Shown here: in pieces, positions 2,813 to 48,044 of the stretch | How positions within the stretch are numbered: position 1 is the first letter of the stretch | Layout: each line of letters starts with the position of its first letter | NCBI GenBank assembly: GCA_011390955.1 | Contig: JAABRM010000001.1 | Span: 46,694 to 110,693, forward strand | Direction of reading: 5' to 3' | DNA length: 64,000 bases | Source: Oscillatoriales cyanobacterium | GTDB taxonomy: Bacteria; Cyanobacteriota; Cyanobacteriia; Cyanobacteriales; Laspinemataceae | Notes under the pieces: model-generated | Databases searched by the model: none | What the model was told of the DNA's origin: nothing | What the model saw: the letters and a program-made list of their open reading frames with translations, nothing else | Position numbers and translations under genes: made by a program

Positions 2813-2814
2813 TT

Positions 2815-3030
2815 ATTAGTTGTTTGTTGTTGGTTGTTGGTTGTTGGTTGTTGGTTGTTTGTTGCCCCCCCTTGAAGGGGGGGTTGGGGGGGGTGTTGTT
2901 AGTTATTGGTTATTGGTTATTAGCCGGATCCTATGTATTACAAATAACAAACAACAAATAACAAACAACAAATAACAAACAACAAACAACAAACAACAAA
3001 CAACAAACAACAAACAACAAACAACAAATC
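2815..3030. repeat. STRR-like heptanucleotide tandem arrays arranged as a large inverted repeat (TTGTTGG arm ... CAACAAA arm) around a C7-TTGAA-G7 hairpin
   Basis: Direct reading: 'ttgttggttgttggttgttgg...ttgcccccccttgaaggggggg...caaataacaaacaacaaataacaaacaac...'. It starts 3 nt after the stop of the upstream gene. Confidence 0.85.
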
Positions 3031-3472
3031 TTAATACTTTGGGCAAATTTTTAACATTTATTCATATAAATATATATTGAAATTAGTTGAAAATTCTGGG
3101 CAAGTGAATTACAATATATACAATCATACCAGCAAAAATCGACCCCGCATTGCTTATATGCCAAGACATTTGGCAGTTTTGTCCATAAAAAATTAGCTCA
3201 GTAATCGCTGAAATTTCTAAAAAAGTCACCTCAGATTATTTCATAAACTCAGATTTTTTTTAAGATTTTATACAAAAACTTGAGTCAGGACTCTCGAAAA
3301 TGTAACCAAAAATAATGTTTTGGTAAAAAATGTTGCATTTTGTACCTGATAAATCAGATAATGTGTAATTATAAAAAAATAGTTAAGGAAATGGTTCCGC
3401 TGGATTTCTCTGTATTGCAGCGATATTCCAGCGATCGCAAAACAACCCGATGCTCCAAATCCTTGATCCAAG

Positions 3473-3718: not shown

Positions 3719-4362
3719 GTCATTTGAGCGATTTTGCTGTAGTTATTTGGGTGACTGGACTTGCTTCAAGTGATTTCAGTCCAGTCAGTCTAAACTCTGC
3801 ATTAAAACAAAATTAAAACCAAATTGCCACAAAAGCGATCGCGTTTATTTGAACATTAATTGAGCCGTAATTGAGCATGATTTGACCCGTAATTGAGTAT
3901 TATTTGAGTATTAATACCATTGACAAAAAGTTATGCAATAGTAGGGGCGCAATGCTTGCGCCCAAATAAACCTGGGAATTACAGCAGTAATTTTTAAAAT
4001 TCGTATAATTAAATGGCTTGAGAGAGAGTCATTGTTTTTGTTGATGAATTATCATCAGATAAAAAAATGAATGAAAAAAAAGTTAATCATTTTGCGAGTT
4101 AATTGAAAGTCAATTGAGTCAGGGGGCTGGTTTTGGGATAAATTTCCCCGGAATTTGCGGTTTGGGGTCTTTGGCAACGGGCGACAAAGATGATATGATA
4201 TATCTTGCCGATCGCTCCCAGATCGGGTCTGATGATTAGTTGTAAAATTAAAACAACTACATCACCATACCCCTAAAAATAACCCGATGATTCACTGAAA
4301 TCAAGGTGGGAAATTAGGGGCCTTGTTCTGTAGGTCAGATATCGGTTACGACAACAACTTCT

Positions 4363-6988: not shown

Positions 6989-8080
6989 ATGAGATTCTCT
7001 TGGCGTTGGTTATTAAGTTTTGGATTCATGGGATTATCCGTAGCGGTTTGCCTTTTGCAGCCTGCCTTATTAGTCAATAGTGCCAGCAATCCTCCATCCT
7101 ATCAGGCACAATCAGTTAATCCCGGAACCTTTAACCCTTCTGGTAAATTTGCCCTGGTCAAAACCCTGGACGATTCAGAACAAGGGCATATCTCTAGAGT
7201 CAACGACCTGGCGATTAGTCCCGATGGCAAAGTCCTCATTAGTGCCAGTCGAGATAAAACCATTAAACTCTGGAATCTAGAAACCGCAAGCTTAATTACC
7301 ACCTTGTCCCAAGATGCTAAAGAAATTTACTCCGTGGCGATTTCTCCCGACGGGCAAACCTTGGCTAGTGGCAGTGCGGACGAAACCATCAAGATTTGGC
7401 GACTGAACCTCAGCCAACTGGCCATCAATTCCCAGATTCCCGTCGCCTCGTTAGAATTCACCAAAAAAGCCCATGACTTTGGGGTGAGTGCAGTGGCGAT
7501 CTCTCCCGATGGCCAAACCATTGCTACTGCCAGCCCAGATAGGAGGATTAAATTATGGAACCTCGCCACTCTCGAAGAAAAAGAAGAGCTTAAAGGCCAT
7601 AACAGCTTTGTTTGGGACGTAGCATTTAGTCCCGATGGTCGCACCTTGGCCAGTGCTAGTTACGATCAAACCGTCAGAATTTGGAACTTAGGCAGAGGGT
7701 TTCGCAAACGTGAACTGAAAGGTCACGAGTCTCCAGTCCTCTGTGTGGCTTTCAGTCCTGATGGTCTTATGTTGGCCAGTGCCAGCAGCAATGGCACGAT
7801 TAAATTGTGGAATCCCCGGACAGGTCAAGTGATTAGTACCCTGGCAAGGCATACTTCTACGGTGATGTCCCTGCAATTTAGCCCCGATGGACAATATTTA
7901 GCTAGTGGGGGTGCAGACAATGTGGTGAAAATTTGGAATCCGATCAACGGTGCTGTCCTGGAAACCCTCCGAGGACATATTAATCCAGTGACAGCAGTCG
8001 CTTTTACCCCCGATGGTAAGACGTTGGTCAGTGGCAGTGCCGATCGCACGATTAAAATTTGGCAGCGTCGCGAAAATTAG
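6989..8080 (+). CDS. secreted WD40-repeat protein (7 WD repeats)
   Basis: ATG at 6989 preceded by GGAG at ~11 nt; the ORF caller's GTG at 6971 is less likely. N-terminal signal peptide 'MRFSWRWLLSFGFMGLSVAVCLLQ'. Repeated '...SPDG(Q/K)TLASGSxDxTIKLWN' WD40 units. Confidence 0.8.
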   Translation: MRFSWRWLLSFGFMGLSVAVCLLQPALLVNSASNPPSYQAQSVNPGTFNPSGKFALVKTLDDSEQGHISRVNDLAISPDGKVLISASRDKTIKLWNLETASLITTLSQDAKEIYSVAISPDGQTLASGSADETIKIWRLNLSQLAINSQIPVASLEFTKKAHDFGVSAVAISPDGQTIATASPDRRIKLWNLATLEEKEELKGHNSFVWDVAFSPDGRTLASASYDQTVRIWNLGRGFRKRELKGHESPVLCVAFSPDGLMLASASSNGTIKLWNPRTGQVISTLARHTSTVMSLQFSPDGQYLASGGADNVVKIWNPINGAVLETLRGHINPVTAVAFTPDGKTLVSGSADRTIKIWQRREN

Positions 8081-8084
8081 GCAT

Positions 8085-8143
8085 TTGTTGTTGGTTGTTG
8101 GTTGCTGGTTGTTGGTTATTGGTTGTTTGTTGTTGGTGATTTG
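8085..8143. repeat. STRR-like TTGTTGG array (left arm)
   Basis: 'tttgttgttggttgttggttgctggttgttggttattggttgtttgttgttgg'. Pairs with the CAACAAA arm at 8411-8503. Confidence 0.8.
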
Positions 8144-8179
8144 GAAGTCCTGAATGCAAACAACAGGGAGCCGCCAATC

Positions 8180-8330
8180 GAGCGTCTTGTGCGTCTTGTG
8201 CGTCTTGTGCGTCTTGTGCGGGGGAGCGGCGGTTCGGCTTCGCTCACCGACCGAGGAGCAGAGGAGCAGAGGAGCAGAGGAGCAGAGGAGCAGAGGAGCA
8301 GAGGAGCAGAGGAGCAGAGGAGCAGAGGAG
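8180..8330. repeat. two adjacent 9-mer tandem arrays: (GCGTCTTGT)x4 and (GAGGAGCAG)x~9
   Basis: Direct reading. A second (GAGGAGCAG)n + 'gagagagtgaa...ttttcacttttcact' block occurs at 57305-57400. Confidence 0.85.
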
Positions 8331-8410
8331 AGAGTGAATAGTGATACCTATTTTCACTTTTCACTTGTACGGGCGAATGCGAGAACGCCCCTACGAATGC
8401 ATCACTTTCC

Positions 8411-8503
8411 CCAACCAACAACCAACAGCAAACAACAACTAACAACAAACAACAACCAACAAACAACAACCAACAACAAACAACCAACAAACAACAAACA
8501 ACA
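8411..8503. repeat. STRR-like CAACAAA/CCAACAA array (right arm)
   Basis: 'ccaaccaacaaccaacagcaaacaacaactaacaacaaacaacaacc...'. Confidence 0.8.
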
Positions 8504-8513
8504 GGAAAAAACT

Positions 8514-9317
8514 ATGACCAATTCATACACAGAAAGCGATCGCGAATGGTGGGCGCAACAATGGGTCGATTTATTAAATTCTTATCGGTTTAAAAAGCGC
8601 TTAGAACGAGGGCGTCGCTATGCGATCGAAGGAAATGTGCGATCCATTGACTTTTCCGAGCAAAAAATCATCGCAAAAGTTCAAGGCACTGAAGCTGAAC
8701 CTTATGAACTTTCTCTATGGCTGGATCGGTTTACCGCAGAAGATTGGCAATATGTAGTCCAAAGTTTATCGGAAAAAGCGATATTTTCCGCTAAGTTATT
8801 AGCCGGAGAAATGCCCGCCAATATTGAGGATGTTTTTGCAGCCAATGGGCTCAGACTATTTCCCTTTAAATTATCGGAAATTCATTCCCGCTGTAGTTGT
8901 CCCGATAAGGCTAATCCCTGTAAACATATTGCAGCGGTCTATTATTTGTTGGGCGATCGCTTCAGTGAAGACCCCTTTTTATTATTTCAATTGCGCGGTC
9001 GCAGTCAAGCAGAACTGATTGCTAACCTCCGGGAAATTCGCGGAACCGAAGCATCAGAAACCACAGCGGAAACGGATAATATACCGGAAAAAACTCCGGT
9101 AATTTTTGCAAAATCTCCCCTTAATTTAGAAGATTTTTGGCAATACGATCGACAGTTAGATTCTGGGTTAGTCGTGATTGCCCCACCCCCAAGTAGTGAA
9201 ACTATTTTAGATGTGCTCGGACCGATTGGATCCCCCGTCGTGACTGAGTATTTGCAAAGCGTTTATCCGCTGATTAGTCAACAGGCAATTCTGACCGGAT
9301 TAAATCGTGATGACTAA
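8514..9317 (+). CDS. SWIM zinc-finger domain protein
   Basis: ATG at 8514 with upstream 'aggaaaaaact'. SWIM CxCxnCxH motif 'CSCPDKANPCKHIAAV'. The caller's longer ORF (8154) only adds translation of the repeat arrays. Confidence 0.7.
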   Translation: MTNSYTESDREWWAQQWVDLLNSYRFKKRLERGRRYAIEGNVRSIDFSEQKIIAKVQGTEAEPYELSLWLDRFTAEDWQYVVQSLSEKAIFSAKLLAGEMPANIEDVFAANGLRLFPFKLSEIHSRCSCPDKANPCKHIAAVYYLLGDRFSEDPFLLFQLRGRSQAELIANLREIRGTEASETTAETDNIPEKTPVIFAKSPLNLEDFWQYDRQLDSGLVVIAPPPSSETILDVLGPIGSPVVTEYLQSVYPLISQQAILTGLNRDD

Positions 9318-9523: not shown

Positions 9524-9596
9524 AGCCGATGACGGGAGTCGAACCCGTGGCCATTCGATTACGAATCGAATGCTCTGGCCTCTGAGCTACACCGGC
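9524..9596 (-). tRNA. tRNA-Thr (anticodon CGU)
   Basis: Reverse complement reads 'GCCGGTGTAGCTCAGAGGCCAGAGCATTCGATTCGTAATCGAATGGCCACGGGTTCGACTCCCGTCATCGGCT'. It has a 7-bp acceptor stem, D-arm GCTC/GAGC, anticodon loop TTCGTAA (anticodon CGT) and T-arm 'ACGGGTTCGACTCCCGT'. Confidence 0.85.
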
Positions 9597-12642: not shown

Positions 12643-13344
12643 ATGGTCGTCTCCACGGGGCAACAAGCAGCTACCCAACTCACGCATTCTCTCCGAGCCA
12701 AACATCCGAAAAAGCATAATCATTACGGGTTTAAGGACTTTTTTCATTTTGATTCTACCCAAGGCACCATTACCGACTGGAATAACGCTCGGAATATTCT
12801 GACCAGTGAAGATTTTATCATTGGTTTAGTGGAAGGATTAGAAGAAGAAGTCGGCCCAGCTTCTTCGGTGATTATGTACACCATTGGCGAAGAATGGGGC
12901 AACAAAGATGCTGCTTTTTTTAAAGAATGGTTTGAAAAAGAATATGAGCGAGAAGTGCGCCAGACTAATTTAATGTTTCTATTAGAAACTTGGTGGTGGC
13001 CTTTTACTTCTCAAGGCTGGGGACGATGGGAAGTCGATTTGAGCGATCGCAAACATGGGTTTATGTTCATTAACTTATTTGATTCTGCCGTAGCTCGCAC
13101 CCTGGGAGACGTGGGCAAACCCGTTTGTTATATCTACGCGGGATTATTTGCCGGTTTCTTTAGTTGCTTAGTGAAAAAACCCCTAAGCTGCATTGAATTG
13201 CAATGCTACTCAATGGGAGAAACTTACTGTAAATTTCTCATCGGCAACAAAGACCGGATTGATGCGGCAGCTTTTTGGCAAAATGAAGGAGCCACCGCTA
13301 ATGATATTCAACGACGAATGCAGTCCGGGGATCGACTAAAATGA
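12643..13344 (+). CDS. V4R (4-vinyl-reductase-like) domain protein, paralog 1
   Basis: C-terminal V4R cysteine signature 'CYIYAGLFAGFFSCLVKKPLSCIELQCYSMGETYCKF'. Paralogous to 14289-14957 ('IIGLVEGLEEEVG' vs 'IDAIYSGLEKETG'). Confidence 0.7.
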   Translation: MVVSTGQQAATQLTHSLRAKHPKKHNHYGFKDFFHFDSTQGTITDWNNARNILTSEDFIIGLVEGLEEEVGPASSVIMYTIGEEWGNKDAAFFKEWFEKEYEREVRQTNLMFLLETWWWPFTSQGWGRWEVDLSDRKHGFMFINLFDSAVARTLGDVGKPVCYIYAGLFAGFFSCLVKKPLSCIELQCYSMGETYCKFLIGNKDRIDAAAFWQNEGATANDIQRRMQSGDRLK

Positions 13345-13616
13345 ACCAGGCAAAGACTTTACTAAAACTATCAGTCGATCGGTTTTTTAGCCAATGCAAC
13401 TGGACTGGTCAACCCCTAGCAATTCTGGAAAATGCCGATCTAGAAACTGTTCCCGAAATTCGCCTGAGTTTATTAGTCAGCGAATATTTCCGCTTACTTC
13501 CCTGGGAAGGAACTCCGATCGTTGGTTCTCTGCCAAAAGTATCGGCTAATGTTGATTTGCTAGAAACCGATCCCCTTGATGATGTCACCCTTGAGGATCT
13601 CCTCGACTCTTTTTAG
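13341..13616 (+). CDS. hypothetical acidic small protein, translationally coupled (ATGA overlap) to the upstream V4R gene
   Basis: Start overlaps the previous stop by 4 nt. No known motif. Confidence 0.4.
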   Translation: MNQAKTLLKLSVDRFFSQCNWTGQPLAILENADLETVPEIRLSLLVSEYFRLLPWEGTPIVGSLPKVSANVDLLETDPLDDVTLEDLLDSF

Positions 13617-13617
13617 A

Positions 13618-13695
13618 GAGTAGGGTGGGCAATATCTTGCCCACCCTACGAATTGCTACAGTAGTAGGGTGGGCAAGATATTGCCCACCCTACAG
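13618..13695. repeat. two tandem perfect palindromes of the GTAGGG...CCCTAC family (terminator-like hairpins)
   Basis: 'gtagggtgggcaatatcttgcccaccctac' and 'gtagggtgggcaagatattgcccaccctac'. They lie immediately after the stop at 13616. Confidence 0.75.
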
Positions 13696-13750
13696 ATAGC
13701 TACAGATAGTTGAAATACTATTTATCCACATCTACCTAAGAATTAACGCT

Positions 13751-14227
13751 ATGCACCCAGAGCTTTTGAGCCTACTAGAAACGGCTGAACAGCGCTACCT
13801 AGAACCGAAAGAGATTGAACTTTATCGTCGCCATGCGGCCTCTTTAAATCGACGCTTACAAGCCTATGAAATGCTGCGAGAACAAGAAACAAAAATTTTT
13901 CAAGCGATCGCCGATAGACTGGTGAATGCATTACCAAATGAAAGCCAAGAAAATTTAGAACGGTGTTTGAAATATTGGCTGTTAATTGTGCGCTATAGTG
14001 CCACAGCGATGCTAATCAACGATCTTTCTTATTTACAAAACCGTTTGCAGGAATGGGTTAAGGGTTTACTAGAAACTTATGAAACCTATCAAATTGATGT
14101 GCAGGTTTATGACTTACTGATGCAGGAATTAAAAAATTACCTATCTCAAGACGATGTGCGGTTATTAGATCCGGTTCTCCAAAAAGCTAAGGATTTAATT
14201 ATCTCTAAGCAACCCGGCAATTCCTGA
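13751..14227 (+). CDS. phycobiliprotein-family (globin-fold, allophycocyanin-like 'Apl'-type) protein, orphan
   Basis: Region 'ERCLKYWLLIVRYSATAMLINDLSYLQNRLQEW' parallels the phycobiliprotein core '[29 protein letters not shown]'; the Cys sits at the chromophore-attachment position followed by the aromatic/LRIVxY block. No partner subunit, linker or lyase genes nearby. Confidence 0.6.
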   Translation: MHPELLSLLETAEQRYLEPKEIELYRRHAASLNRRLQAYEMLREQETKIFQAIADRLVNALPNESQENLERCLKYWLLIVRYSATAMLINDLSYLQNRLQEWVKGLLETYETYQIDVQVYDLLMQELKNYLSQDDVRLLDPVLQKAKDLIISKQPGNS

Positions 14228-14288
14228 AAAGTTAAGCAGAAAAATTGATTCAGTTTCAGCTAATTAAATATGAGGAATAGGAAGCAAA

Positions 14289-14957
14289 ATGATCTCAATT
14301 ACCAATTTGTTGGAAGATAACGATAAACTTTCAGGAAATTATTTTTCCTCGGATGTTTATGTGAAGGGGGATTTAGAGTTAGGACTATTAGAAAATCGTC
14401 GGGGCGATCGCCTCTTGGCTTTACCGGATACCCTGATTGATGCCATTTACAGCGGTTTGGAAAAAGAAACCGGATCTGCCACCCGTTTAGTGCTGTTTAA
14501 TTGTGGTAAATGGTGGGGCAAGAATTTATATGTCCGTTTTTGCGAAGAAATCCAAGATTACTATAATAAATCAATTGCAGAAATGGACATGATTTCGTTT
14601 GTCCAATGTTTACAACAATTTTGGAAAACTCATGGCTGGGGATTATTTGAATTTGACCAAACTTATTATCAACAAGGATTTTTGGTCTTTAAAATTACTA
14701 ATTCTTCTTTTGCCAAGAAAACCGAGAACTGGTCTGGTCCTGCTTGTTTTTTAGAAGCGGGGATTTTAACTAGCTATTTTAGTCAACTCACCGGACGAGA
14801 ACTTACCTGCGTGCAAACCACTTGTGAATCCCTTGGGGCTGATTGTAATCGGTTTATTTTGGGTTTGCCCGACCGTCTGGAACCAGTGGAAGGTTGGGTT
14901 ACAGAAGGTCTAAACCATGACACGATTATGCATCGATTGTCTGAAACCCAAAATTAA
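14289..14957 (+). CDS. V4R (4-vinyl-reductase-like) domain protein, paralog 2
   Basis: V4R signature 'CFLEAGILTSYFSQLTGRELTCVQTTCESLGADCNRF'. Confidence 0.7.
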   Translation: MISITNLLEDNDKLSGNYFSSDVYVKGDLELGLLENRRGDRLLALPDTLIDAIYSGLEKETGSATRLVLFNCGKWWGKNLYVRFCEEIQDYYNKSIAEMDMISFVQCLQQFWKTHGWGLFEFDQTYYQQGFLVFKITNSSFAKKTENWSGPACFLEAGILTSYFSQLTGRELTCVQTTCESLGADCNRFILGLPDRLEPVEGWVTEGLNHDTIMHRLSETQN

Positions 14958-15061
14958 AGATGTTTGACCTGAATTTACTTGGTAAAACTGGGGGCGGCGA
15001 TGCCACGAAGCGGTTCCGGAAAGGGAATCGCAAATCAGATCGATTTGCCCCCAGTTTTATG

Positions 15062-15550
15062 TCTGATTTTATAGCACTTGTCAGAGTTATGAAGTACAAA
15101 AAAACCTGTCATTCCCGCCTTCGCGGGAATCCAGAAAACCTCTGTAATCCAGATAATAACCGCTATACAGCCTATTCAGAAATAATCCGATCCAATCTCT
15201 ATAGCACTTGTCATAGTTATGAAGTACAAAAAAACCTGTCATTCCCGCCTTCGCGGGAATCCAGAAAACCTCTGTAATCCAGATAATAACCGCTATACAG
15301 CCTATTCAGAAATAATCCGATCCAATCTCTATAGCACTTGTCATAGTTATGAAGTACAAAAAAACCTGTCATTCCCGCCTTCGCGGGAATCCAGAAAACC
15401 TCTGTACTTCATCCAGATAAGTAGGTGAAAATAATTAATTGCACTTTTCGTTTTCCGCCAATAGGCTTTGGATTCCCGCCTTCGCGGGAATGACAGCCTT
15501 TCTTCTCGTGGGGTCTGTAGTGCATTTATTTCTGCCCACCTACTTAATAA
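15062..15550. repeat. MITE-like composite repeat; left module triplicated as a ~130-bp tandem unit, followed by inverted right module
   Basis: Three near-identical units 'agcacttgtcatagttatgaagtacaaaaaaacctgtcattcccgccttcgcgggaatccagaaaacctctgtaatccagataataaccgctatacagcctattcagaaataatccgatccaatctctat'. These are followed by 'ggattcccgccttcgcgggaatgacagcc...tttatttctgcccacctactta'. Confidence 0.8.
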
Positions 15551-15618
15551 CCGCTATATGTTTTATTTTATGTCTGATTAATCCTTTCCCCCGTCACCCA
15601 CAAACAGAAACCCGGTTT

Positions 15619-17709
15619 CTAGGCAAAATGCCAAATTTTGACCGTTCTGTCCCAACTGCCACTGACCAAAGTTTGACCATCAGGACTAAAGGCTAAAGAG
15701 TTTACAGTTCCTAAATGGTTGAGAGTTTGTAGTAGTTCTCCGGTGTGATAATTCCAGATTCTAATGGTGTTATCTTGGCCCCCACTGGCGAGAGTTTGGC
15801 GATCGGGACTGAAGGCTAAACAAGATACATAACCTTCATGGTCAGTGAGGCTTTTTTCTAGTTTGCCGGTTTCCAGATTCCATAAATAAATTGGTTGGTC
15901 AGAACCACCGCTGGCAATGATTTTGTCATCGGGACTAATGGCGATCGCCCAAATAATGCCTTTAGACTGATCGAACCAAGAGGCTAATGACCCAAAAAAA
16001 TCATCGGGGCGGTTTAATGTTCGCAGTCTTTTTTCTGCCCGCCAATTCCAAATCATAATCGCACTATCGGCGCCGCCACTGACCAAAATTCGACCATCAG
16101 AACTAAAGGCGATCGCGGTAACTTCCCAGCCATGTCCTTTTAAAGTATATGCAACTTTGCCTCGATCTATTTGCCAAATTCTAATCGCCGTATCCACAGC
16201 GGTAAAACCAATATGTCCACTAGCAAGATATTGTTGGTCACGACTAAATGCCAAACTCCCTACCCGCAGATTGACTAATGAAGCGCCCAGAGATTTTTGC
16301 AGCTTTCTCGTATTTAAATCCCACAGCTTAATTGTGCCATCATTAAATTCGTGATTGCTGGAACTAGCTAATATTTTCCCATCGGGACTAAACGCCAGCG
16401 CAATAATCGCGCTATGGTGTCCGGTGAGGGTTTCTAGGATTTCTCCGGTTGCCGCATTCCATAGTTTAATTGTATTATCTTGACTGCCACTGGCGATGGT
16501 TTTTCCATCAGGACTCATGGCTACGCAAATAATCGGTTGCGTATGTCCAGTTAAGATATGTTTGATTTTCCAAGCGGGAGGCGGTAAAAAGTCTTTCCAG
16601 CTTGGGGGTTTAACGGCAGGATTTTGGCAAATTACCGGCAACCAACTCACCCCCGGATATTTTTTATCCCAGGCATCTTCGAGTTTTTTGCGGGCTAATA
16701 ATACTGAGGTATAAAAAGATTGGTTGCTGGCAAAGGCAGTGAGGAAATCCCTTAAAAAATCCTGGGCTACTTGGTCTGGTATGCGATCGCGCATGACAAT
16801 TATCTGGGGAAACTGTAAGTCTTCCAATTCATTGGCTAATCCCAAACCGTTGCAAGAGTTAAAAAAGGCAATTTTTAAGCCATTTTGAATCGCAGTTTTT
16901 AGAGCATTTTTAAATTCGGGAATCGCCAGATTATCTTGGGCATTAAGCTTAATCCAACCAGTTGCTCGATCGAAATTGCTGTTGCTATGGCCATCAAAAA
17001 ATAAAATATCCCAGCCTTGTGGTTGCCAAAGCATATCCCGGAATGTTTCCGGTGTTGGTTCGATTAACGACACAATTTCGGCATCGTTTAAATGGAGTTT
17101 AATTAAATCTAAGTCAGGGGAACTATTGCCGTCAGGGTATTTTTCTAACCCGGTGCGATCGCCCACCACCACCAAAATTCTCACTCGGTCATGTTTGGTC
17201 TTTTCTCTCCGGGGAGGTGGGGTAAACTCTGGGGTACTCAGGGCAATTTCTACGGGAACCGAAGCATCGGCAAAAAATCTCCAAACGTGCCAAGGGAGGA
17301 GACGAAGTTGCGGGTTTTTGGTTTGAATAATCACCCTAACTTCATTCGTCCCCATTAAATTGCGATTTAATTCATCCCGGATTTTTAGCCAGTCTTCATG
17401 CCCAGAATTCAGCCATCCATTTAACTTTTGAATAAATTGACTTTTCCACTCCACAGCAGGAGTAGCCATAGGACTTTCTGGTTCGTCCTCAAATTGAGAA
17501 CGTTTCATTCCCGGAAGATTCTGATATCCTCTTTGCCAATAGTTATAAAGTTGCCAAAGCGTCGGATTTGTGTCATCTTCTGGCGGCAGTTTACCTTGCA
17601 CTTGGATTTCGCTTCCCGTAGCATCATCATCATCCTGAATTCGCAGCAAAGCCGGAAATCCTGGCTGAAAATTGCCCTCGAATAGGGTTAAGATAACTCG
17701 CTTTCCCAT
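15619..17709 (-). CDS. caspase-like (CHAT/metacaspase-type His-Cys dyad) domain fused to C-terminal WD40 repeats
   Basis: His/Cys dyad context 'ILFFDGHSNSN' ... 'IAFFNSCNGLG'. C-terminal ~8 WD40 units ('AFSPDGKILASSS...TIKLWD'). Confidence 0.8.
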   Translation of the reverse strand: MGKRVILTLFEGNFQPGFPALLRIQDDDDATGSEIQVQGKLPPEDDTNPTLWQLYNYWQRGYQNLPGMKRSQFEDEPESPMATPAVEWKSQFIQKLNGWLNSGHEDWLKIRDELNRNLMGTNEVRVIIQTKNPQLRLLPWHVWRFFADASVPVEIALSTPEFTPPPRREKTKHDRVRILVVVGDRTGLEKYPDGNSSPDLDLIKLHLNDAEIVSLIEPTPETFRDMLWQPQGWDILFFDGHSNSNFDRATGWIKLNAQDNLAIPEFKNALKTAIQNGLKIAFFNSCNGLGLANELEDLQFPQIIVMRDRIPDQVAQDFLRDFLTAFASNQSFYTSVLLARKKLEDAWDKKYPGVSWLPVICQNPAVKPPSWKDFLPPPAWKIKHILTGHTQPIICVAMSPDGKTIASGSQDNTIKLWNAATGEILETLTGHHSAIIALAFSPDGKILASSSNHEFNDGTIKLWDLNTRKLQKSLGASLVNLRVGSLAFSRDQQYLASGHIGFTAVDTAIRIWQIDRGKVAYTLKGHGWEVTAIAFSSDGRILVSGGADSAIMIWNWRAEKRLRTLNRPDDFFGSLASWFDQSKGIIWAIAISPDDKIIASGGSDQPIYLWNLETGKLEKSLTDHEGYVSCLAFSPDRQTLASGGQDNTIRIWNYHTGELLQTLNHLGTVNSLAFSPDGQTLVSGSWDRTVKIWHFA

Positions 17710-17732
17710 TGATATCTCCGATGATTACCAAT

Positions 17733-17868
17733 TCTGTAAGGTGGGCAAAATTTGCCCACCCTACTATTATTAATCGATCTTGTAAATCTTGTAAGGTGGG
17801 CAAAATTTGCCCACCCTACTATTATTAATCGATCTTGTAAGGTGGGCAAAATTTGCCCACCCTACGAT
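17733..17868. repeat. three tandem perfect palindromes (GTAAGGTGGGCAAAATTTGCCCACCCTAC) with ~45-bp period, GTAGGG...CCCTAC family
   Basis: Direct reading. They occupy the whole intergenic space between two co-oriented minus-strand genes. Confidence 0.8.
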
Positions 17869-17875
17869 TAGAAGG

Positions 17876-19036
17876 TTAGATCACAAAATTTTCTGTGATG
17901 CTTACCTCTCCTAATGATAATCGAATACTGAATTGTTCTCCGACCGAACCGCTAAAACCTTGGAGTTCTAAGAAATTGGGATTCGTGGGTTGTGCTTGTC
18001 TGAAAGTATTACCGGATCGATCGAACACGATAACTTGAAGATTTTCAGGCAAATCATTCTCCTCATCGATCGCTTCTATGCGAATTCGGATACTGACTTT
18101 CTGCTCGTTTTTCGGGCGAAATGCTACCAGTAAAGCAACCGTAAAAGATTGCGTTTCGCTGACTAAATCGATCGCTTTTGCCATTTCAATTCCCGCTTGG
18201 GGATGACTGGGATTAATTTTCCCCAAACTTAAAGCCGCTTGCCAAAGAGTTTCGCTATCTTCACTGGTTGCGAGTAAGTCACTCAAAGCGGCGATCGCTT
18301 CAGGAGAGTTTACCCCAATGTCCCCTAATTCCGTGGCAATTTGCCGCCGAGTTATTTCGTCATTGGTGGTTTGCAACCGTTGGATCAGAGGGGCGATCGC
18401 TTCTATTTCATAGGGTGACATAGCACCCTTGTGAGCACCCGTTGCCAGTACCAGTTGTGGTTGCTGCCAATAAGGTTCAAAAATCTCATCTCGGAGATTT
18501 TGCAGCCATTGTCGCCAATTTATCGGCGCTGTTGCGGACTGGAGGCGGACAGCCAAAATTGGCACACCCAATATTTCTGTTAATTGCTTTGTTTTGAACA
18601 AATACTCAATTCGTTCAAATGCTTCTAGGCAACTTTCCAAGACCAGAACAACACTTCCTGGCTCGATTTTTTTCAGGGCAATGAAAGGATTGCCTAAAAG
18701 TTCATTTGCTAACTCAATTAAAGCTTCTGCTTTTTGCCGATCTACTTCGTTGAGTGTAGCACTTAAAAGTAATAACCAGGTGCTTTCCGCAGTCTGAGTA
18801 GTCGGAGTATCTATTGTATTGTCCACAACCTCTTCCCAGTTAACTCCTACTGCCTGACAAATTGCCTTAAATACTTCCTCTTGAATTCTTTTTCCTTGCC
18901 GAAAACGCCGCAAAGTTGCTGGTGAAGTTTGAGCCGCATCAACCCAAGCTACAGCATCCGCGTTCCAGCCTTTCTTTCTTCTAGCTAAATCGACTTTTGC
19001 CAAGCCTTCTTTTGTTGCTTTTAGTGTAATTGCCAT
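17876..19036 (-). CDS. alpha-helical N-terminal adaptor-like domain + HEAT (PBS-lyase-type) repeats + C-terminal domain shared with ORF 39003-39617
   Basis: N-terminus 'TLKATKEGLAKVDLARRKKGWN...ATLRRFRQG...FKAICQAVGVNWEEV' is homologous to the N-terminus of STAND ORF 22452-23810 ('TLKASELGLSKIQQARKDSGRN...ATWRRFLTG...FKAFCQVLGFDWREI'). Mid-region has HEAT-like 'ELGDIGVNSPEAIAALSDLLATSEDSETLWQAALSLGKI'. The C-terminal ~70 aa resemble the C-terminus of 39003-39617. Confidence 0.6.
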   Translation of the reverse strand: MAITLKATKEGLAKVDLARRKKGWNADAVAWVDAAQTSPATLRRFRQGKRIQEEVFKAICQAVGVNWEEVVDNTIDTPTTQTAESTWLLLLSATLNEVDRQKAEALIELANELLGNPFIALKKIEPGSVVLVLESCLEAFERIEYLFKTKQLTEILGVPILAVRLQSATAPINWRQWLQNLRDEIFEPYWQQPQLVLATGAHKGAMSPYEIEAIAPLIQRLQTTNDEITRRQIATELGDIGVNSPEAIAALSDLLATSEDSETLWQAALSLGKINPSHPQAGIEMAKAIDLVSETQSFTVALLVAFRPKNEQKVSIRIRIEAIDEENDLPENLQVIVFDRSGNTFRQAQPTNPNFLELQGFSGSVGEQFSIRLSLGEVSITENFVI

Positions 19037-19606
19037 TATTACCTCAAATTTAGTTGTCAGTCGATCTCAGTTTGATCTCAGTTTGATCTCAGTTGGGCGA
19101 TCGCTCATAAAGATGAGCCTATTTAAACCTTTTCTATACAGCACCATTAAGGTGTGGAGAAAAGTTAGCGCTAACTCCCTTTCTCCTCAGCAGTCAATCA
19201 ATGACCTTGAGGCAGAAACGAGCTATGAAAACTCAATTTTTTACTTCCCCAGTCCTCGTTGTAATTATACTACTGGTCGAGTCCATTTCCTCAGTTTCTT
19301 TGGCAGCCAATTCCCAGTTAAGCCAAAAAGCTGCTATGACCTTGACTGACTCGGAAATTATCGCCAACCAAGACGGCGATCGCACTTCAGAGTCGGATCA
19401 ATGCGACCCAGAGCAAATAAATTGTAACAAAGTATAATCAACCCGCCTTGTTTTCTAATTCCCCTTACGGCTGAAAAAACGCCTTGGGGAATTCTTGAAC
19501 CAATCTAAAAATTTTCCCCCATTCCCACCCTTATTGCCAAGGGGGTTGGGGGAATATTGTGCATAACTCTCGATATATTCATTTCAATTGTGATTGATAC
19601 AATGCT

Positions 19607-19633
19607 GTAGGGGCGCAATGCTTGCGCCCCTAC
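19607..19633. repeat. palindrome GTAGGGGCGCAATGCTTGCGCCCCTAC (GTAGGG...CCCTAC family)
   Basis: Perfect 27-bp palindrome. A near-copy with a degenerate right end is at 3941-3963. Confidence 0.75.
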
Positions 19634-19834
19634 TTGTATTAATTTTAATTCAAACAACTATAAATCATATTTTATTACCCCGATCGAAGCACTTGTGCTG
19701 TATTTATATTTTTGCTTAACAATAATTATTATATTTAAAAATATAATAATTATAATTTTTGCTAAAATACCTTTATTTGGTATATAATTAAACTAAGCAA
19801 ATAACTGCCGAAATTTATCATAAAAATAACTGGC

Positions 19835-20761
19835 ATGACTCGCGAAATCCATGACCAATTTGCTAAAGACTATCTCTCAGAATTACTATCTCATCTCGGA
19901 GAAGTCGAAACCAGCCGGGAAGTCACATCAGAAGTGCGACAAGTGGATGTTTATTTTATCCCCGCTGCCACGCCAAAGGACATCGATCCCAAACTCTTAG
20001 GGTTACTCGCGCCTATGGCCAAAACCGCTGGTTTATTTGAGCCATTTCGCAATCCTCCGACCCCGGTAGAAATCTCTAATTGTTTGGTAAAACTCTTTGG
20101 CGTTCAGGGGGAACAACGCCGCCAAGCCCGTCGGGAAAATGTCAGCCAAACTCAACTTGAATCACCGCGTTTGTGGATTTTATCCCCTTCCATTTCAACG
20201 CCAATTCTGCGCGGGTTTGGGGCGAAACCAGGCGAGTCAGAGGAATGGCCACCGGGAATCTATTTTCTGCCAAAATTTTTTTATACGGGACTGGTGGCAA
20301 TTCATCAGCTACCCGTGACCCCAGAAACTCTCTGGTTGCGGGTTTTGGGTCGGGGAGAAGTCCAAAAAGCGGCGATCGATGAGTTGGTAGCTTTGCCAGA
20401 AGCCAATCCTTTACGGCGTTATCTGCTGGAAATCTTGGCCTCCTGGCGGATCAATGTGGAATTAAGTCAAAATTTAGATGAGCAAGAAAAACAGGAGTTG
20501 ACTATGAACTTATCACCGGCATATTTACGTTGGCGAGAAGAAACTTTTCTTGAAGGTCGTCAAAAAGGTCTTCAAGAAGGTCTTCAAGAAGAACGCCGTT
20601 CAATGATAGAAAATTTCCTGCGAGTTCGCTTTGGAGAAGTGGATGAGCAATTGTCTCAGATTATTGAGTCAATGTTAGGATTGCCTACGGCAGAATTGAC
20701 CGTAATGTTGCTGAATTTTTCCCGGTCTGAGTTGTTAGAAAGATTTGGCCAAAATCGTTAA
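19835..20761 (+). CDS. Rpn/YhgA-like (PD-(D/E)XK) recombination-promoting nuclease / putative transposase family protein
   Basis: N-terminal 'IHDQFAKDYLSELL' matches the family-typical 'HDxxFKxxL' start. The size and C-terminal helical region fit the DUF4351-type tail seen in cyanobacterial members. Confidence 0.65.
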   Translation: MTREIHDQFAKDYLSELLSHLGEVETSREVTSEVRQVDVYFIPAATPKDIDPKLLGLLAPMAKTAGLFEPFRNPPTPVEISNCLVKLFGVQGEQRRQARRENVSQTQLESPRLWILSPSISTPILRGFGAKPGESEEWPPGIYFLPKFFYTGLVAIHQLPVTPETLWLRVLGRGEVQKAAIDELVALPEANPLRRYLLEILASWRINVELSQNLDEQEKQELTMNLSPAYLRWREETFLEGRQKGLQEGLQEERRSMIENFLRVRFGEVDEQLSQIIESMLGLPTAELTVMLLNFSRSELLERFGQNR

Positions 20762-20765
20762 TTAT

Positions 20766-20796
20766 GTAGGGACATGGGCTTTCGCCGTGTCCCTAC
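20766..20796. terminator. hairpin GTAGGGACA-N13-TGTCCCTAC between convergent genes (GTAGGG...CCCTAC family)
   Basis: 'gtagggacatgggctttcgccgtgtccctac' lies 5 nt after the stop at 20761 and upstream of the stop of the minus-strand kinase gene. Confidence 0.5.
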
Positions 20797-20845
20797 AAGG
20801 CAATGCCGTGTCTTTGGTCAAGTCATACCAAAAATATCTGAATAA

Positions 20846-22483
20846 TTAATCCTGGTAGGCTTGGCGTCCTTTTTCTTTTAACCAATGATCTAATTCTGGT
20901 AAGCTGATAGAATCTATGGGACATTTTTCTAATGCGTCTTTTGTCCCAGAAGCGTCTCTCAAACGTTCCATTACTGGTGCGAGAATACAATAAGCTTCTG
21001 GCCGATCGCTGCTAATTGCGATCGCTTCTTCCAGGTATTCCTCCGCATTTTCGTATTGTTCCAGACAGAGTTGTGCTCTACCCAGGTTGGTCAGCAAGCC
21101 ATATTTTCCCGCATATTTTGTAGCGATTTTTAAACCCTCTAAAAATAGGAAAGCTGCCCTCTGACAATCTTGCTTTCCTTGCTCTAGCAGATAGAGGCGT
21201 CCCAGGTTATTATAGGCTGAGGGGTTTTTATATTTAATCGCTTGCTCATATTCCCGAATCGCTGAAGCAATATCGTTTTGGTCTTCATAAAGGGAGCCAA
21301 GATTATAATAAGCTTGGCCGTAATCTGACTTTAGTAATATCGCTATTTGATAGGAATTTTTAGCCCGGTTAAACTGTTGACTTCTGTGATATATAATTCC
21401 CCGTTGATTCATCTCAATAGCCAGTTTATTTGACGCAAAATACCAGCCGATCGCCAATGCCGTTAGTAATAATATTACAGAAGCGATCGCTTTCTGGCCT
21501 TTAAGAAGTTTTTCTGTTATTATATCCTTAAATGGGATAACTTTGCCTGCGGGATCGCCAGATTCTAAATATTCTAAACCTGCTAAAGATTCTAAATCAT
21601 TTAACCGGGATAAAATAACTTCGTTACTGGAGGGACGTTCCCTGGGAAACAAAGCCATCATCTCATCCAGTAAATCTGCCAATTTATCGGGAATTTCCGA
21701 TGCGCGATCGCGCCAAATTAAATCCCCGTTCGTTTCATTTTCTGGTAAATTAATCGGCACAATTCCCGTCAGCAAATGCACCATTGTCCGACCGAGGGCA
21801 AAGAAATCTGATTGAGGCACCGCTTTGCCATTCATTTGCTCAATTGGAGTATAACCTTGTGGGGACATTAATCTCGTATGTTCCGCATCTTCTCCTAACT
21901 TTACCAGATAAGTATTGTTAATTTGCCTAACTCCTCCAAAGTCAATTAAAACCAGCTTGCCGTCCGGTTTCACCATAATATTTTCTGGCTTAATATCCCG
22001 GTGAAAGTAATGATTTTGGTGCAGTTTTTGCAATATTTCCAGCAGTTGTTTTAACCAGTCAATTGCCAATGATGAGGCAATCGGTTGATTATCTCTTTGC
22101 TTTAACCAGGTTAATAAATTTTCCCCGGCAATTTTTTCCATCACCAAACAGTGAATGGTTTCCCGGTCGGCTTCAATGGTAAAATATCCGTCTGGTTCGA
22201 CTTTGGGAATGCCGGGATGATTCAGGTGGCTTAAAACTTTTGCTTCCCGTTGAAACAGCGCGATCGCCTTGTCTTTTTCTGATGGGGGAAAGTTCTCTAA
22301 ATTGAGAACTTTGAGAACTTTAATAAATTTAACTTTATGGCAAGACTTTTCATCCCGGACAGCAAAAACTTCGCCAAAGCCTCCTGACCCAAGCTTTTCC
22401 ACAATTCTATAGCGGTTTTGCACCAGCATACCGATAGATAACATAAGCAACTCACTGGAATATGTGCTTAAATTGGTTAACAA
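20846..22483 (-). CDS. Ser/Thr protein kinase - transmembrane segment - TPR repeats
   Basis: Hanks kinase motifs 'LGSGGFGEVF', 'YFHRDIKPENIMV', 'DFG'. TM 'AIASVILLLTALAIGWYF'. C-terminal TPR-like 'AYYNLGSLYEDQNDIASAIREYEQAIKY...AYNNLGRLYLL'. The first ATG (22483) overlaps the upstream gene by 32 nt; in-frame ATGs at 22444/22429 are alternatives. Confidence 0.85.
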   Translation of the reverse strand: MLTNLSTYSSELLMLSIGMLVQNRYRIVEKLGSGGFGEVFAVRDEKSCHKVKFIKVLKVLNLENFPPSEKDKAIALFQREAKVLSHLNHPGIPKVEPDGYFTIEADRETIHCLVMEKIAGENLLTWLKQRDNQPIASSLAIDWLKQLLEILQKLHQNHYFHRDIKPENIMVKPDGKLVLIDFGGVRQINNTYLVKLGEDAEHTRLMSPQGYTPIEQMNGKAVPQSDFFALGRTMVHLLTGIVPINLPENETNGDLIWRDRASEIPDKLADLLDEMMALFPRERPSSNEVILSRLNDLESLAGLEYLESGDPAGKVIPFKDIITEKLLKGQKAIASVILLLTALAIGWYFASNKLAIEMNQRGIIYHRSQQFNRAKNSYQIAILLKSDYGQAYYNLGSLYEDQNDIASAIREYEQAIKYKNPSAYNNLGRLYLLEQGKQDCQRAAFLFLEGLKIATKYAGKYGLLTNLGRAQLCLEQYENAEEYLEEAIAISSDRPEAYCILAPVMERLRDASGTKDALEKCPIDSISLPELDHWLKEKGRQAYQD

Positions 22484-28345: not shown

Positions 28346-28380
28346 AAAACGCAACAATTGCGTTTCTATATTTTTCCATT
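28346..28380 (+). terminator. putative rho-independent terminator
   Basis: 'aacgcaacaattgcgtt' hairpin followed by 'tctatatttttcc', 12 nt after the stop at 28334. Confidence 0.45.
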
Positions 28381-28735
28381 CTATTCCCTGTTCCTGATTC
28401 CCTGTTCCTGATTCCCTATTCCCTATTCCCCGTTCCCTTTCCCTATTCCCTATTCCCCGTTCCCTATTCCCTATTCCCTATTCCCTATTCCCCGTTCCCC
28501 GTTCCCTTATGACTTACGCAATGACTCTATATATGGGGTATTGGTGCGTTACGCTTCGCTAACGCACCCTACAAATAGCATTTATGCGTAAGTCCTGTCC
28601 CTATTCCCCGTTCCCCGTTCCCCGTTCCCCGTTCCCTATTCCCTATTCCCTATTCCCTATTCCCTATTCCTTATTCCTTATTCCCTATTCCCTATTCCCT
28701 ATTCCCTATTCCCTATTCCCTATTCCCTATTCCAT
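28377..28735. repeat. STRR-like TTCCCTA/TTCCCCG heptamer array interrupted by an ~90-bp inverted-repeat-flanked insert
   Basis: Arrays 28377-28500 and 28597-28735. Insert 'gacttacgcaatgac...ggtgcgttacgcttcgctaacgcacc...atttatgcgtaagtc' has 10-11-bp terminal inverted repeats and an internal hairpin. Confidence 0.8.
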
Positions 28736-32321: not shown

Positions 32322-32439
32322 AGCAACGTCCTACAGAGTCAAGAAACCGGGTTTCTTGACTCTGGTAAATGTTAGATCAAATTTTAGGCAGAAACCCGGT
32401 TTCTCTGTCCCAGGAAAAACCTGGAAAAATGTAGCCTAT

Positions 32440-32575
32440 TTTACTGTTTATAGCGGTTTTTATTGGATGAAGTACAGAGGTTTTCTGGATTCTTTTTCTG
32501 GATTCCCGCCTGCGCGGGAATGACAGGTTTTTTTGTCCTTCATCACTCCGAAAAGTGCTATAAAAACCCATCGTT
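32440..32575. repeat. MITE-like repeat fragment (inverted orientation of left module)
   Basis: 'ggatgaagtacagaggttttctggattc...ggattcccgcctgcgcgggaatgacaggttttttt'. Flanked by a 'gaaaccgggtttct' palindrome at 32345-32405. Confidence 0.55.
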
Positions 32576-38628: not shown

Positions 38629-38702
38629 AAATCCTCCAAAAATAAACTCAAAATTACATAATGAGTTTATTATGCTTAGATCCCAAGTGGATTTCCGAAA
38701 TA

Positions 38703-39002
38703 TTCGTTATTTGTTGTTGGTTGTTGGTTATTCGTTATTTGTTCTTGGTTGTTTGTTCTTTGTTGTTCGTTGTTCGTTGGTTGTTCGTTGGTTGTTGTTC
38801 GTTGGTTGTTGTTCGTTGGTTGTTCAACAATCAACAATCAACAATCAACCACCAACAAAGAACAAACCACCGATCGCTTACCACCAACAAACAACAAACA
38901 ACAAACAACAAACAACAAAGAACAAAGAACAAAGAACAAACAACAAACAACTTGCCAACAAACAACAAACAACAAACAACAAACAACAAACAACAATCAA
39001 CC
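38703..39002. repeat. large STRR-like inverted array (TTGTTGG/TTGTTCG arm then CAACAAA/CAAAGAA arm)
   Basis: Direct reading. It fills the entire 370-bp intergenic region between two minus-strand genes. Confidence 0.85.
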
Positions 39003-43862: not shown

Positions 43863-43924
43863 GGGCGAGCAAGGGAATCGCCCGGAGATTCGAGAATTGC
43901 CCCTAACATACCAGAAAGCAAATC

Positions 43925-46750: not shown

Positions 46751-46751
46751 T

Positions 46752-47075
46752 TCTTTGTTATTTGTTATTTGTTGATTGTTGATTGTTATTTGTTGATTGT
46801 TGATTGTTGATGGTTGATTGTTGATTGTTGATTGTTGATGGTTGATTGTTGATTGTTGATTGTTGATTGTTGATTGTTGATTGTTGATTGTTGATTGTTG
46901 AACAACGAACAACTAACAACCAACAACTAACAACCAACCAACAACGAAAGAATCCCTACCCAAAGAATCCCTACCCAACAACTAACAACCAACCAACAAG
47001 AACCAACAACCAACCAACAACAACCAACAAACAACCAACAACAACCAACAAACAACCAACAACAAACAACAAATC
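46752..47075. repeat. large STRR-like inverted array (TTGTTGA/TTGTTAT arm then CAACAAC/CCAACAA arm) inside the pot operon
   Basis: Starts 2 nt after the potB stop and ends 33 nt before the potC start. Confidence 0.85.
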
Positions 47076-47107
47076 CTATAATAATTGATTAATTGGAATA
47101 GATTTCA

Positions 47108-47953: not shown

Positions 47954-47971
47954 TCCTGAATTTTATCCGCA

Positions 47972-48010: not shown

Positions 48011-48044
48011 CTGCGCTTTTCTGTTGATTAAACCACAAATTTTT

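Follow-up and report, generated by a model that had tools for sequence, protein, structure and literature searches.

GTAG-headed hairpins in a 64-kb region of an Oscillatoriales cyanobacterium are probable REP and REPIN repeats

A 64,000-nucleotide (nt) stretch of the genome of an Oscillatoriales cyanobacterium (assembly GCA_011390955.1, contig JAABRM010000001.1, positions 46,694 to 110,693), hereafter called the window, carries a scattered set of short palindromes that begin with GTAGG(G) and in their most regular form end with CCCTAC. The window is cyanobacterial in character, with 43% G+C, 90 copies of the HIP1 octamer (GCGATCGC), and a gene of the phycobilisome family. Once near-exact, truncated, and long copies were included, about 13 palindromic elements were recognized at nine loci. 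The forms present are single hairpins, an inverted doublet, a tandem cluster, and long hairpins. Most probably, these elements are repetitive extragenic palindromic (REP) sequences of the GTAG-tagged superfamily, together with REP doublets forming hairpins (REPINs), and thus belong to a bacterial repeat class that is already known. The doublet is REPIN-like, and the tandem cluster resembles a bacterial interspersed mosaic element (BIME). The evidence comes from the sequence and placement of the elements, from their turnover in syntenic relatives, and from the hairpins that accompany genes for REP-associated tyrosine transposases (RAYTs) in other genomes.

RESULTS

Hairpins of the window

The elements were assigned to families according to their stems and are given below with positions in the window.

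3941-3963, plus strand: family B copy, GTAG-GGGCGCAA-TGC-TTGCGCCC, with GTAG unpaired and without a 3' CTAC
13620-13649, no strand assigned: symmetric REP of family A, GTAG-GGTGGGCAA-TATC-TTGCCCACC-CTAC; fold of -15 kcal/mol, z = -7.6
13650-13663, no strand assigned: 14-nt linker GAATTGCTACAGTA separating the two inverted family A copies
13664-13693, no strand assigned: inverted family A copy with the loop GATA, the reverse complement of 13620-13649
17736-17764, 17791-17819, and 17837-17865, minus strand: three tandem family A copies, with repeat units of 55 and 46 nt
19607-19633, no strand assigned: symmetric REP of family B, the exact palindrome GTAGGGGCGCAA-TGC-TTGCGCCCCTAC
20766-20796, plus strand: symmetric hairpin of family D, GTAGGGACATGG...CCGTGTCCCTAC, with a T.G wobble on the plus strand
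28543-28572, minus strand: canonical REP with unpaired GTAG, GTAGGGTGCGTTAGCGAAGCGTAACGCACC
43859-43884, plus strand: weak candidate for a degenerate member, GTAG-GGGCGA-GCAAGGGAA-TCGCCC
48045-48119, plus strand: family E long hairpin, unit 1, GTAGGGGCGAAGCATTCCGGCAG, a 29-nt loop, and CTACCGGAATGCTTCGCCCTTAC; z = -8.7
48119-48220, plus strand: family E unit 2 and an overlapping partial arm, with pairings over 48119-48168 and 48150-48216 and the 3' end CCCCTAC
48365-48392, no strand assigned: family C perfect 28-nt palindrome GTAGGGGCGAATGGCCATTCGCCCCTAC, inside the STAND NTPase open reading frame (ORF) 48231-49619 on the minus strand

Palindromes of the exact form GTAGGG-N(8-38)-CCCTAC occurred five times in the window (13620-13649, 13664-13693, 19607-19633, 20766-20796, and 48365-48392), compared to 0.02 expected from 100 dinucleotide-preserving shuffles. 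Hairpins headed by GTAG numbered 17 when counted strand-wise, compared to a mean of 0.6 per simulated window in a third-order Markov control. HIP1 is a motif unrelated to the palindromes and does not account for them. As DNA, all elements folded far better than their own shuffled versions (z = -4.8 to -13.3); the short elements had stems of 9 to 14 bp, loops of 0 to 13 nt, and folds of -10 to -15 kcal/mol (z = -4.8 to -7.6). In every case, GTAG stood directly at the foot of the stem on at least one strand. This was true even of the three copies at 17736-17865, which read GTAAGG...CCCTAC on the plus strand and keep GTAG intact on the minus strand only, where its partner is CTTAC (with a G.T wobble). 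The GTAG was unpaired, at one end of the element, at 3941, 28572 (minus strand), and 43859 and was paired with CTAC in the five exact symmetric copies. The feature that did not vary across the elements was the 5' head GTAGG(G), under which the stems were TGGGCAA, GCGCAA, GCGAATGG, ACATGG, GCGAAGCA, and TGCGTTAG.

Two loci had a compound structure. In the doublet at 13620-13693, the 30-nt arms are 100% complementary and are separated by the 14-nt spacer, giving a single 74-nt fold of -37.4 kcal/mol (z = -13.3); this was the only locus with the REPIN layout of two inverted REPs, a short spacer, and one long hairpin. The region from 48045 to 48220 consists of two homologous hairpins of approximately 75 nt and a third pairing that overlaps. 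The closing ends of unit 1 read GTAGGG...CCCTTAC, and the 5' head of unit 2 has decayed. The loop of unit 2 is homologous to that of unit 1, and the inner stem has changed with compensation from TCCGG/CCGGA to GACCG/CGGTC. A related 74-nt element was found in another cyanobacterium (locus L013). Among these three family E elements, GTAGGGGCGAAGCA...TGCTTCGCCCCTAC was kept, and the inner stems differed yet were mutually compensated.

A preliminary description of this DNA had proposed at least seven hairpin elements with constant 6-bp termini and different, internally compensated stems. At least that many nonrandom elements were found, and the HIP1-rich composition that it had named as a possible source of such palindromes did not explain them; the canonical REP at 28543-28572 and the weak candidate at 43859-43884 were absent from its list. 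The 6-bp termini were constant in the strict sense in five elements, and in the remainder, only the 5' head GTAGG(G) was constant. Two copies were indeed present within 13618-13695, but as reverse complements with the loops TATC and GATA that form an inverted doublet. The three copies placed at 17733-17868 were found, in tandem, but they read GTAAGG on the plus strand as noted above. The element at 3941-3963 had been grouped with that at 19607-19633, with which it does share GTAG and the GGGCGCAA stem but not the 3' CTAC. The composite nature of 48045-48222 and the position of 48365-48392 within a coding sequence were both confirmed. As for the compensated stems, these were found in the long GCGAAGCA family only; for the most part, the differences reflected several REP families under one head rather than free drift.

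Placement relative to genes

Eight of the nine loci were extragenic, although 81% of the window is coding according to a greedy set of ORFs (binomial probability, about 1e-5). At five loci (13620, 17865, 20766, 43859, and 48220), the element lay within 11 nt of a stop codon. The hairpin at 13620 begins 3 nt past the stop codon of ORF 13341-13616, and that at 20766 begins 4 nt past the stop codon of ORF 19835-20761, where the genes are convergent. The array at 17736-17865 ends 10 nt past the stop codon of the minus-strand ORF 17876-19036, and the same distance separates the 3' end of family E unit 2, at 48220, from the stop codon of the minus-strand ORF 48231-49619. In the candidate at 43859, the TAG of the head doubles as the stop codon of ORF 42711-43862. 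Among the window loci with called genes on both sides, none lay between divergent genes. The earlier statement that copies directly follow genes or lie between convergent ones is true of most loci. The intragenic palindrome at 48365-48392 codes for VGANGHSPL in the C-terminal winged-helix region of the STAND NTPase; paralogues of this protein (33% identical) differ from it in length by 2 amino acids at the palindrome, and the SP residues that the palindrome encodes are conserved, so that it may have been inserted or have arisen in place.

Turnover in syntenic relatives

The window was compared with four syntenic loci of 16 to 20 kb (L098 to L101) from related NCBI assemblies (GCA_053495055.1, GCA_053495015.1, GCA_053494175.1, and GCA_053490095.1), with 84 to 92% protein identity. 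At site 13620, where the window has the inverted doublet, the relatives carry just one hairpin, which has slight mismatches and a loop of 14 nt, and a 10-nt duplication just downstream of the doublet was present in the window but not in the relatives. At site 17736, the three copies of the window correspond to two decayed copies in two relatives and to a different element, GTAGGGGCG...CGCCCCTAC, in a third. The hairpin at 19607 lies within an 87-nt segment that is missing from relatives L099 and L100. At site 20766, the relatives retain the 5' arm and have lost the CCCTAC end. These differences in copy number, presence, and type of element between relatives indicated that the sites are hot spots of gain, loss, and replacement, and such turnover would be as expected for mobile or recombinogenic repeats.

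RAYT genes of other genomes and their flanking hairpins

RAYT proteins were retrieved from a database with a consensus sequence that served as bait only. The proteins retrieved contain the PF01797 domain and bear source names such as "REP-associated tyrosine transposase"; they have the motifs [DN]HLH, FWEH, and YIHYNP, match subclass 2.2 (group 2 of Bertels; subclasses and motifs, PMC6006769), and are approximately 48% identical to E. coli RayT. The heads of the window elements, one of their stems, and their symmetric shape all recur beside RAYT genes elsewhere. Hairpins headed by GTAGGG, as in the window, flanked RAYT genes from cyanobacteria and from metagenomes, and GTAG hairpins were present in the 1-kb flanks of 65 of 80 metagenomic RAYT loci, typically just upstream of the gene and, inverted, just downstream. 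The commonest heads at these 80 loci were GTAGGGTGGG (42), GTAGGGTGCG (39), and GTAGGTTGGG (23). REPINs that start with GTAGGG and end with CCCTAC were found at many RAYT loci.

The closest correspondence was that of the window REP at 28543-28572 (minus strand), which matched, at 30 of 30 positions, the REP that closely follows the RAYT gene of Kastovskya. The hairpin GTAGGGTGCGTTAGCG-N-CGTAACGCACC flanks the RAYT genes of both Kastovskya and Floridanema, and the flanking REPs of Floridanema have the same 9-bp stem as 28543-28572 and differ from it in the loop alone. A near-identical REP with one substitution relative to 28543-28572 (GTAGGGTGTGTTAGCGAAGCGTAACGCACC; GTAGGGTGTGTTAGCG...) lies upstream of the Okeania RAYT gene, which is also flanked by GTAGGGTGCGAAGCATG...CGCACC hairpins. 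In the REPtrons of Kovacikia and N. gonorrhoeae, GTAGGATGCGTTAG... and gcaagcGTAGGTCGGATAC..., respectively, stand on both sides of the RAYT gene; the Gloeocapsa RAYT gene has a GTAG hairpin upstream only. In the gonococcal locus (L105; NZ_CP119142.1, 2870-3520), the RAYT gene is apparently frameshifted, since the tblastn match falls in two pieces; GCAAGC-GTAGGTCGGATAC REPs nevertheless flank it.

Further resemblances were seen at several RAYT loci. At L136, the RAYT gene is followed directly by GTAGGGTGGGCAA-10 nt-TTGCCCACC, which is the family A stem (GGTGGGCAA) without CTAC. Symmetric elements were found at L113, with GTAGGGTGGGTCGCCGACCCACCCTAC on both sides of the RAYT gene, and at L193, a HIP1-containing contig with symmetric GTAGGGTGCGTCTCGACGCACCCTAC upstream of the gene and an asymmetric copy downstream. 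At L184, GTAGGGGCG... heads adjoin the RAYT gene. Overall, the nearest RAYT relative had the same REP head in 34 of 58 cases, compared to 10.9 expected by permutation (maximum, 23). RAYTs with the GTAGGGTGGG head are only 53 to 63% identical to one another, which indicated that this head is either old or recurrent. One RAYT (P0217; GCA_053499455.1), from the accession series of the syntenic relatives, was rejected, because its contig has 50% GC and no HIP1 and thus probably comes from a different organism.

Family A hairpins in other genomes

The family A hairpin (GTAGGGTGGGCAA-N0-8-TTGCCCACCCTAC) was found at no fewer than 96 loci in other genomes. The matches listed included Cyanobacteria (Moorena, Phormidium sp. 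CCY1219, Nostoc, Spirulina, Sphaerothrix, and others), Alphaproteobacteria (Tabrizicola, Rhodobacter, Roseovarius, and Bradyrhizobium), Betaproteobacteria (Rhodocyclaceae, Ramlibacter, Kingella/Neisseriaceae, and Methylotenera), and Gammaproteobacteria (Methylomonas, Methyloprofundus, Thiotrichaceae, and Competibacteraceae). Among these same matches, several genomes (Moorena, Phormidium sp. CCY1219, Tabrizicola, and others) had multiple copies each, flanking motifs recurred within groups, and the loops differed by group: TA, which gives a perfect 28-nt palindrome, was dominant in alphaproteobacterial loci, CAAG/CTTG was mainly beta- and gammaproteobacterial, and AACC/GGTT was found in Moorena. 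In Moorena and Phormidium, the hairpins are nested in a larger conserved repeat, CAGGACTTACGCA...hairpin...AGGTAGC. The GCAAGC/GCTTGC flank seen at the gonococcal RAYT gene also surrounds family A hairpins of other Neisseriaceae, as well as those at several more loci of proteobacteria.

Of 47 family A copies in low-GC genomes, 42 lay outside ORFs, with 22 between tandem genes, 7 between convergent genes, 3 between divergent genes, and 10 at locus edges. An all-against-all BLAST of the ORFs at the 96 loci listed gave only generic families as recurrent neighbors and no transposase, and the only literature matches to the exact sequences GTAGGGTGGGCA and GCCCACCCTAC were unrelated primers. In a metagenome-assembled genome of the Nostocaceae (L014), the linker GAATTGCTACCAGTATT (GAATTGCTAC...), which is near-identical to that of the window doublet, connects a family A hairpin with a canonical GTAGGGTGCG REP. 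This junction ties family A to canonical REPs in BIME-like mosaics.

Other repeats in the window

The window also contains repeats of other kinds. The REP at 28543-28572 lies between the inverted motifs ATGACTTACGCA (28511-28522) and TGCGTAAGTCCTG (28585-28597), with long heptamer arrays of CCCTATT and CCCCGTT on both sides (28380-28733). The TGCGTAAGTCCTG motif also flanks family A hairpins in the Moorena and Phormidium loci, and its recurrence suggests a larger composite repeat common to Oscillatoriales-like cyanobacteria. A second, unrelated palindrome family, AGAAACCGGGTTTCT, is present in about seven copies (32342-32404, 51349-51414, 53438-53503, and 54371-54389), and two identical 66-nt long hairpins of this family lie in a 183-nt duplicate (51298-51480 and 53387-53569; 94% identical).

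Heptamer arrays resembling short tandemly repeated repetitive (STRR) sequences, TTGTTGG-type and then complementary CCAACAA-type, were found at 2806-3036, 8074-8523, 38689-39022, and 46737-47098. They are oppositely oriented around a center (e.g., GCCCCCCCTTGAAGGGGGGG at 2865-2883), and because complementary arrays thus face each other, whole intergenic regions could fold as very long hairpins. Three tandem copies of a 130-nt unit at 15070-15459 (99% and 69% identity) represent a further repeat family and overlap a small ORF (14960-15277); dispersed partial copies with a CCCGCCTTCGCGGGAAT hairpin lie at 903-1108, 32499-32541, and 57097-57179. Tandem arrays of the octamer AGAGGAGC at 8252-8340 and 57302-57350 are each followed by similar sequence, GAGAGTGAA...CACTTTTCACTT.

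DISCUSSION

Comparison with known repeats

The GTAG-tagged REP superfamily (Di Nocera, De Gregorio, and Rocco 2013; PMC3733652) comprises 24 families, including the cyanobacterial families GTAG-12, -15, and -16; their members lie mainly downstream of genes, form dimers and clusters, and flank RAYT genes. The likeness to the window elements extends to stem-loops of 20 to 40 nt with a GTAG head and stems of 6 to 13 bp, to the presence of several families in one genome, to the occurrence of singletons, dimers, and clusters, mainly where neighboring ORFs are tandem or convergent and occasionally inside a gene, and to G.T pairs in the stems and the association with RAYT genes. The difference lies in the tag, which as published there is unpaired and at one end, whereas most window copies pair GTAG with a 3' CTAC.

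The doublet at 13620-13693, with inverted REPs and a short spacer, is like the REPINs described by Bertels and Rainey (2011; PMC3116915) and Bertels et al. (2017; PMC5581495). In keeping with the REPIN/RAYT system, many of the RAYT loci retrieved here carry GTAGGG...CCCTAC doublets, and RAYT relatedness tracks the REP head; unlike that system, most window copies are single, short, symmetric hairpins. With the REPs and BIMEs of E. coli and their transposase TnpA-REP (Messing 2012, PMC3479197; Corneloup 2021, PMC8266576), the window elements share the GTAGG head, clustering, and a recurring linker, and the RAYTs retrieved here have the DHLH, WE, and YIHYNP motifs in common with E. coli RayT. The E. 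coli REPs, however, are imperfect, bulged, and recognized in a strand-specific manner, whereas the window elements are perfect or nearly so and strand symmetric. The subterminal hairpins of the insertion sequence (IS) family IS200/IS605 are likewise single-stranded DNA (ssDNA) hairpins with a 5' tetranucleotide at the foot, and the Y1 HuH enzyme of that family is the closest relative of RAYT (PMC8266576). In contrast to IS200/IS605, the window elements do not enclose a transposase gene between paired ends and are 26 to 75 nt long and noncoding.

What is mildly unusual about the window elements is their strand-symmetric form and the fact that Cyanobacteria share the 13-nt arm with Alpha-, Beta-, and Gammaproteobacteria. 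Tiny dispersed palindromic repeats with conserved outer parts, variable interiors, and evidence of mobility, the small dispersed repeats (SDRs) of heterocyst-forming cyanobacteria, are said to have been described by Elhai et al. in 2008, reportedly with no GTAG tag or RAYT link in that description.

Proposed mechanism

In published work, TnpA-REP binds the folded single-stranded hairpin with its 5' GTAG and cleaves nearby CT or CA sites; its activity requires GTAG plus a hairpin on ssDNA, and GTAG occupies the position of the "guide" of IS200/IS605 (PMC8266576). By analogy, each copy in the window would fold, as ssDNA, into a hairpin with GTAG at its foot, and a Y1 HuH transposase of the group 2 or subclass 2.2 type (RAYT, TnpA-REP) would bind GTAG together with the base of the stem. 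Cleavage and rejoining nearby by such an enzyme could allow copies to spread, to be duplicated, and to be deleted. The window elements would then be substrates, or relics of substrates, of a RAYT-type enzyme that recognizes the GTAGGG head, with the different stems representing separate families. Hairpins that became fixed beside stop codons may protect the 3' end of the mRNA or modulate translation, which would be a side effect and not their origin.

The symmetric GTAGGG...CCCTAC form would most simply be a collapsed REPIN. A REPIN, composed of a REP, a spacer, and an inverted REP, already has GTAGGG at its start and CCCTAC at its end. Palindromic REPs within a REPIN would give direct repeats of both arms, and a slippage deletion could leave GTAG-stem-loop-stem-CTAC, with GTAG on both strands. 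A bolder proposal, which we consider doubtful and put forward only tentatively, is that the symmetric minipalindromes, as collapsed REPINs with GTAG on both strands, are a distinct REP form in which either strand is a RAYT substrate and the 3' CTAC, complementary to the GTAG "guide," is where cleavage or targeting takes place. If this were true, the conservation of GTAGGGTGGGCAA across phyla, alongside RAYTs with the GTAGGGTGGG head that are only about 53 to 63% identical, would suggest either that the RAYT recognition code is ancient and constrained or that horizontal spread has been repeated, in contrast to the species-specific REPs that are usually described.

Alternative explanations and points of difficulty

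The proximity of five loci to stop codons and the lack of divergent genes around any locus with both neighbors called would also suit RNA elements, that is, Rho-independent terminators of 3' untranslated regions or blocks to 3'-5' exonucleases that were selected gene by gene and for which GTAGGG/CCCTAC is merely a good G+C-rich stem base. Consistent with this, in all three imperfect elements (17736 [three copies], 20766, and 48045), a number too small to count as evidence, the strand with the G.T wobble was the sense strand of the nearest gene upstream, and PMC3733652 reports frequent G.T pairs and suggests an RNA function for many REPs. The hairpin at 19607 does have a T-rich tail, but that tail is weak, and this hairpin was the only one to pass a lenient terminator scan, which gave 10 sites in the region compared to 8.7 expected from shuffles and thus no enrichment. 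The intrinsic terminator, defined by a G+C-rich hairpin with a loop of 3 to 8 nt and a T/U run directly after it, was therefore rejected, and with it the canonical form of the terminator family that the preliminary description had offered as an alternative. A curated RNA family was rejected as well: with Rfam 15 at the gathering threshold, the only match in the whole window was a tRNA at 9524-9596, and the further matches from E-value scans of 13000-21500 and 47900-48500 were spurious, subthreshold hairpin models of the microRNA type. Loops of 0 to 2 nt are common in the family, perfect palindromes of 26 to 28 nt make poor RNA hairpin loops, and one copy lies within a coding sequence. Moreover, independent selection would not have produced the same 13-nt arm at 96 or more loci across phyla and the same heads around RAYT genes. 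An origin as RNA elements is therefore unlikely.

Two DNA-level alternatives were also weighed. If GTAGGG...CCCTAC represented the terminal inverted repeats (TIRs) of a conventional IS (IS200/IS605 TnpA/TnpB or IS630 type), the elements would be miniature inverted-repeat transposable elements (MITEs) or palindrome-associated transposable elements (PATEs) and not RAYT-associated REPs. The 75-nt units at 48045-48220 do look MITE-like, with 20-bp TIRs and an unrelated AT-rich interior, and both the related 74-nt element at L013 and the larger conserved repeat around the Moorena and Phormidium hairpins fit this explanation, as do the RAYT-like genes with flanking TIRs instead of REPs that PMC3733652 describes. 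The class was nonetheless rejected, since no copy had a target-site duplication and no transposase recurred beside the 96 copies listed. In addition, the short elements have space for the hairpin alone, they are headed by the canonical GTAG found in REPs at RAYT genes, and elements identical to them or nearly so stand beside such genes, all of which makes this explanation quite improbable. The perfect two-fold symmetry, ends included, the very short loops, and the extragenic location could instead reflect operator-like sites for a dimeric protein that binds double-stranded DNA (dsDNA), nucleoid associated or regulatory, with no link to transposition. Against such sites, the interiors differ wholly between families, which have only the outer 6 bp in common, the spacing of the half-sites ranges from 26 to at least 75 nt, copies stand mainly after genes and not in promoter regions, and the copies at 3941 and 28572 are asymmetric and lack CTAC. 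This last explanation appears very improbable.

Several observations do weigh against the assignment to REPs and REPINs. By regular-expression search and tblastn, no RAYT gene was found in the window, in the four syntenic loci, or in the 96 family A loci listed, so that the link to a RAYT in this genome is indirect, and a RAYT is only presumed to be present and acting in this particular organism. Among the RAYT loci examined, no exact family A element with CTAC directly flanked a RAYT gene. No target-site duplications were seen at the element borders, and no clean empty sites were seen except the 87-nt indel, which carries extra AT-rich sequence. Nor does the intragenic copy at 48365-48392 look like a simple 28-nt insertion relative to the paralogues, given the 2-amino-acid difference. 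The pairing of GTAG with CTAC in most copies makes both strands look like substrates, which conflicts with the strand-specific recognition known from E. coli, and loops of 0 to 4 nt in perfect palindromes would suit a dimeric dsDNA-binding protein equally well. Symmetric copies flank RAYT genes elsewhere (L113 and L193), which suggests that an unpaired GTAG may not be strictly required in practice. The reading of the elements as REP- or BIME-like sequences recognized by a RAYT, one of the two offered in the preliminary description, is supported by the same-head hairpins at RAYT genes of other genomes.

Significance

For annotation, the hairpins of this cyanobacterium should be labeled REP/REPIN repeats and not terminators, small RNAs, or chance palindromes. 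The only public contig with the exact phycobilisome-family protein (Logan contig L001; SRR29699999_270986) stops inside the second family A hairpin (window 13665-13750), which suggests that these repeats break short-read assemblies. Among closely related strains, the hairpins mark hot spots of intergenic rearrangement, and the copies that lie within about 10 nt of stop codons may modulate expression of the upstream gene. For the RAYT family, the head GTAGGGTG(G/C)G recurs around the genes of very different bacteria, and strand-symmetric copies exist; together, these elements provide a natural test set for substrate recognition and strand choice by group 2 RAYTs.

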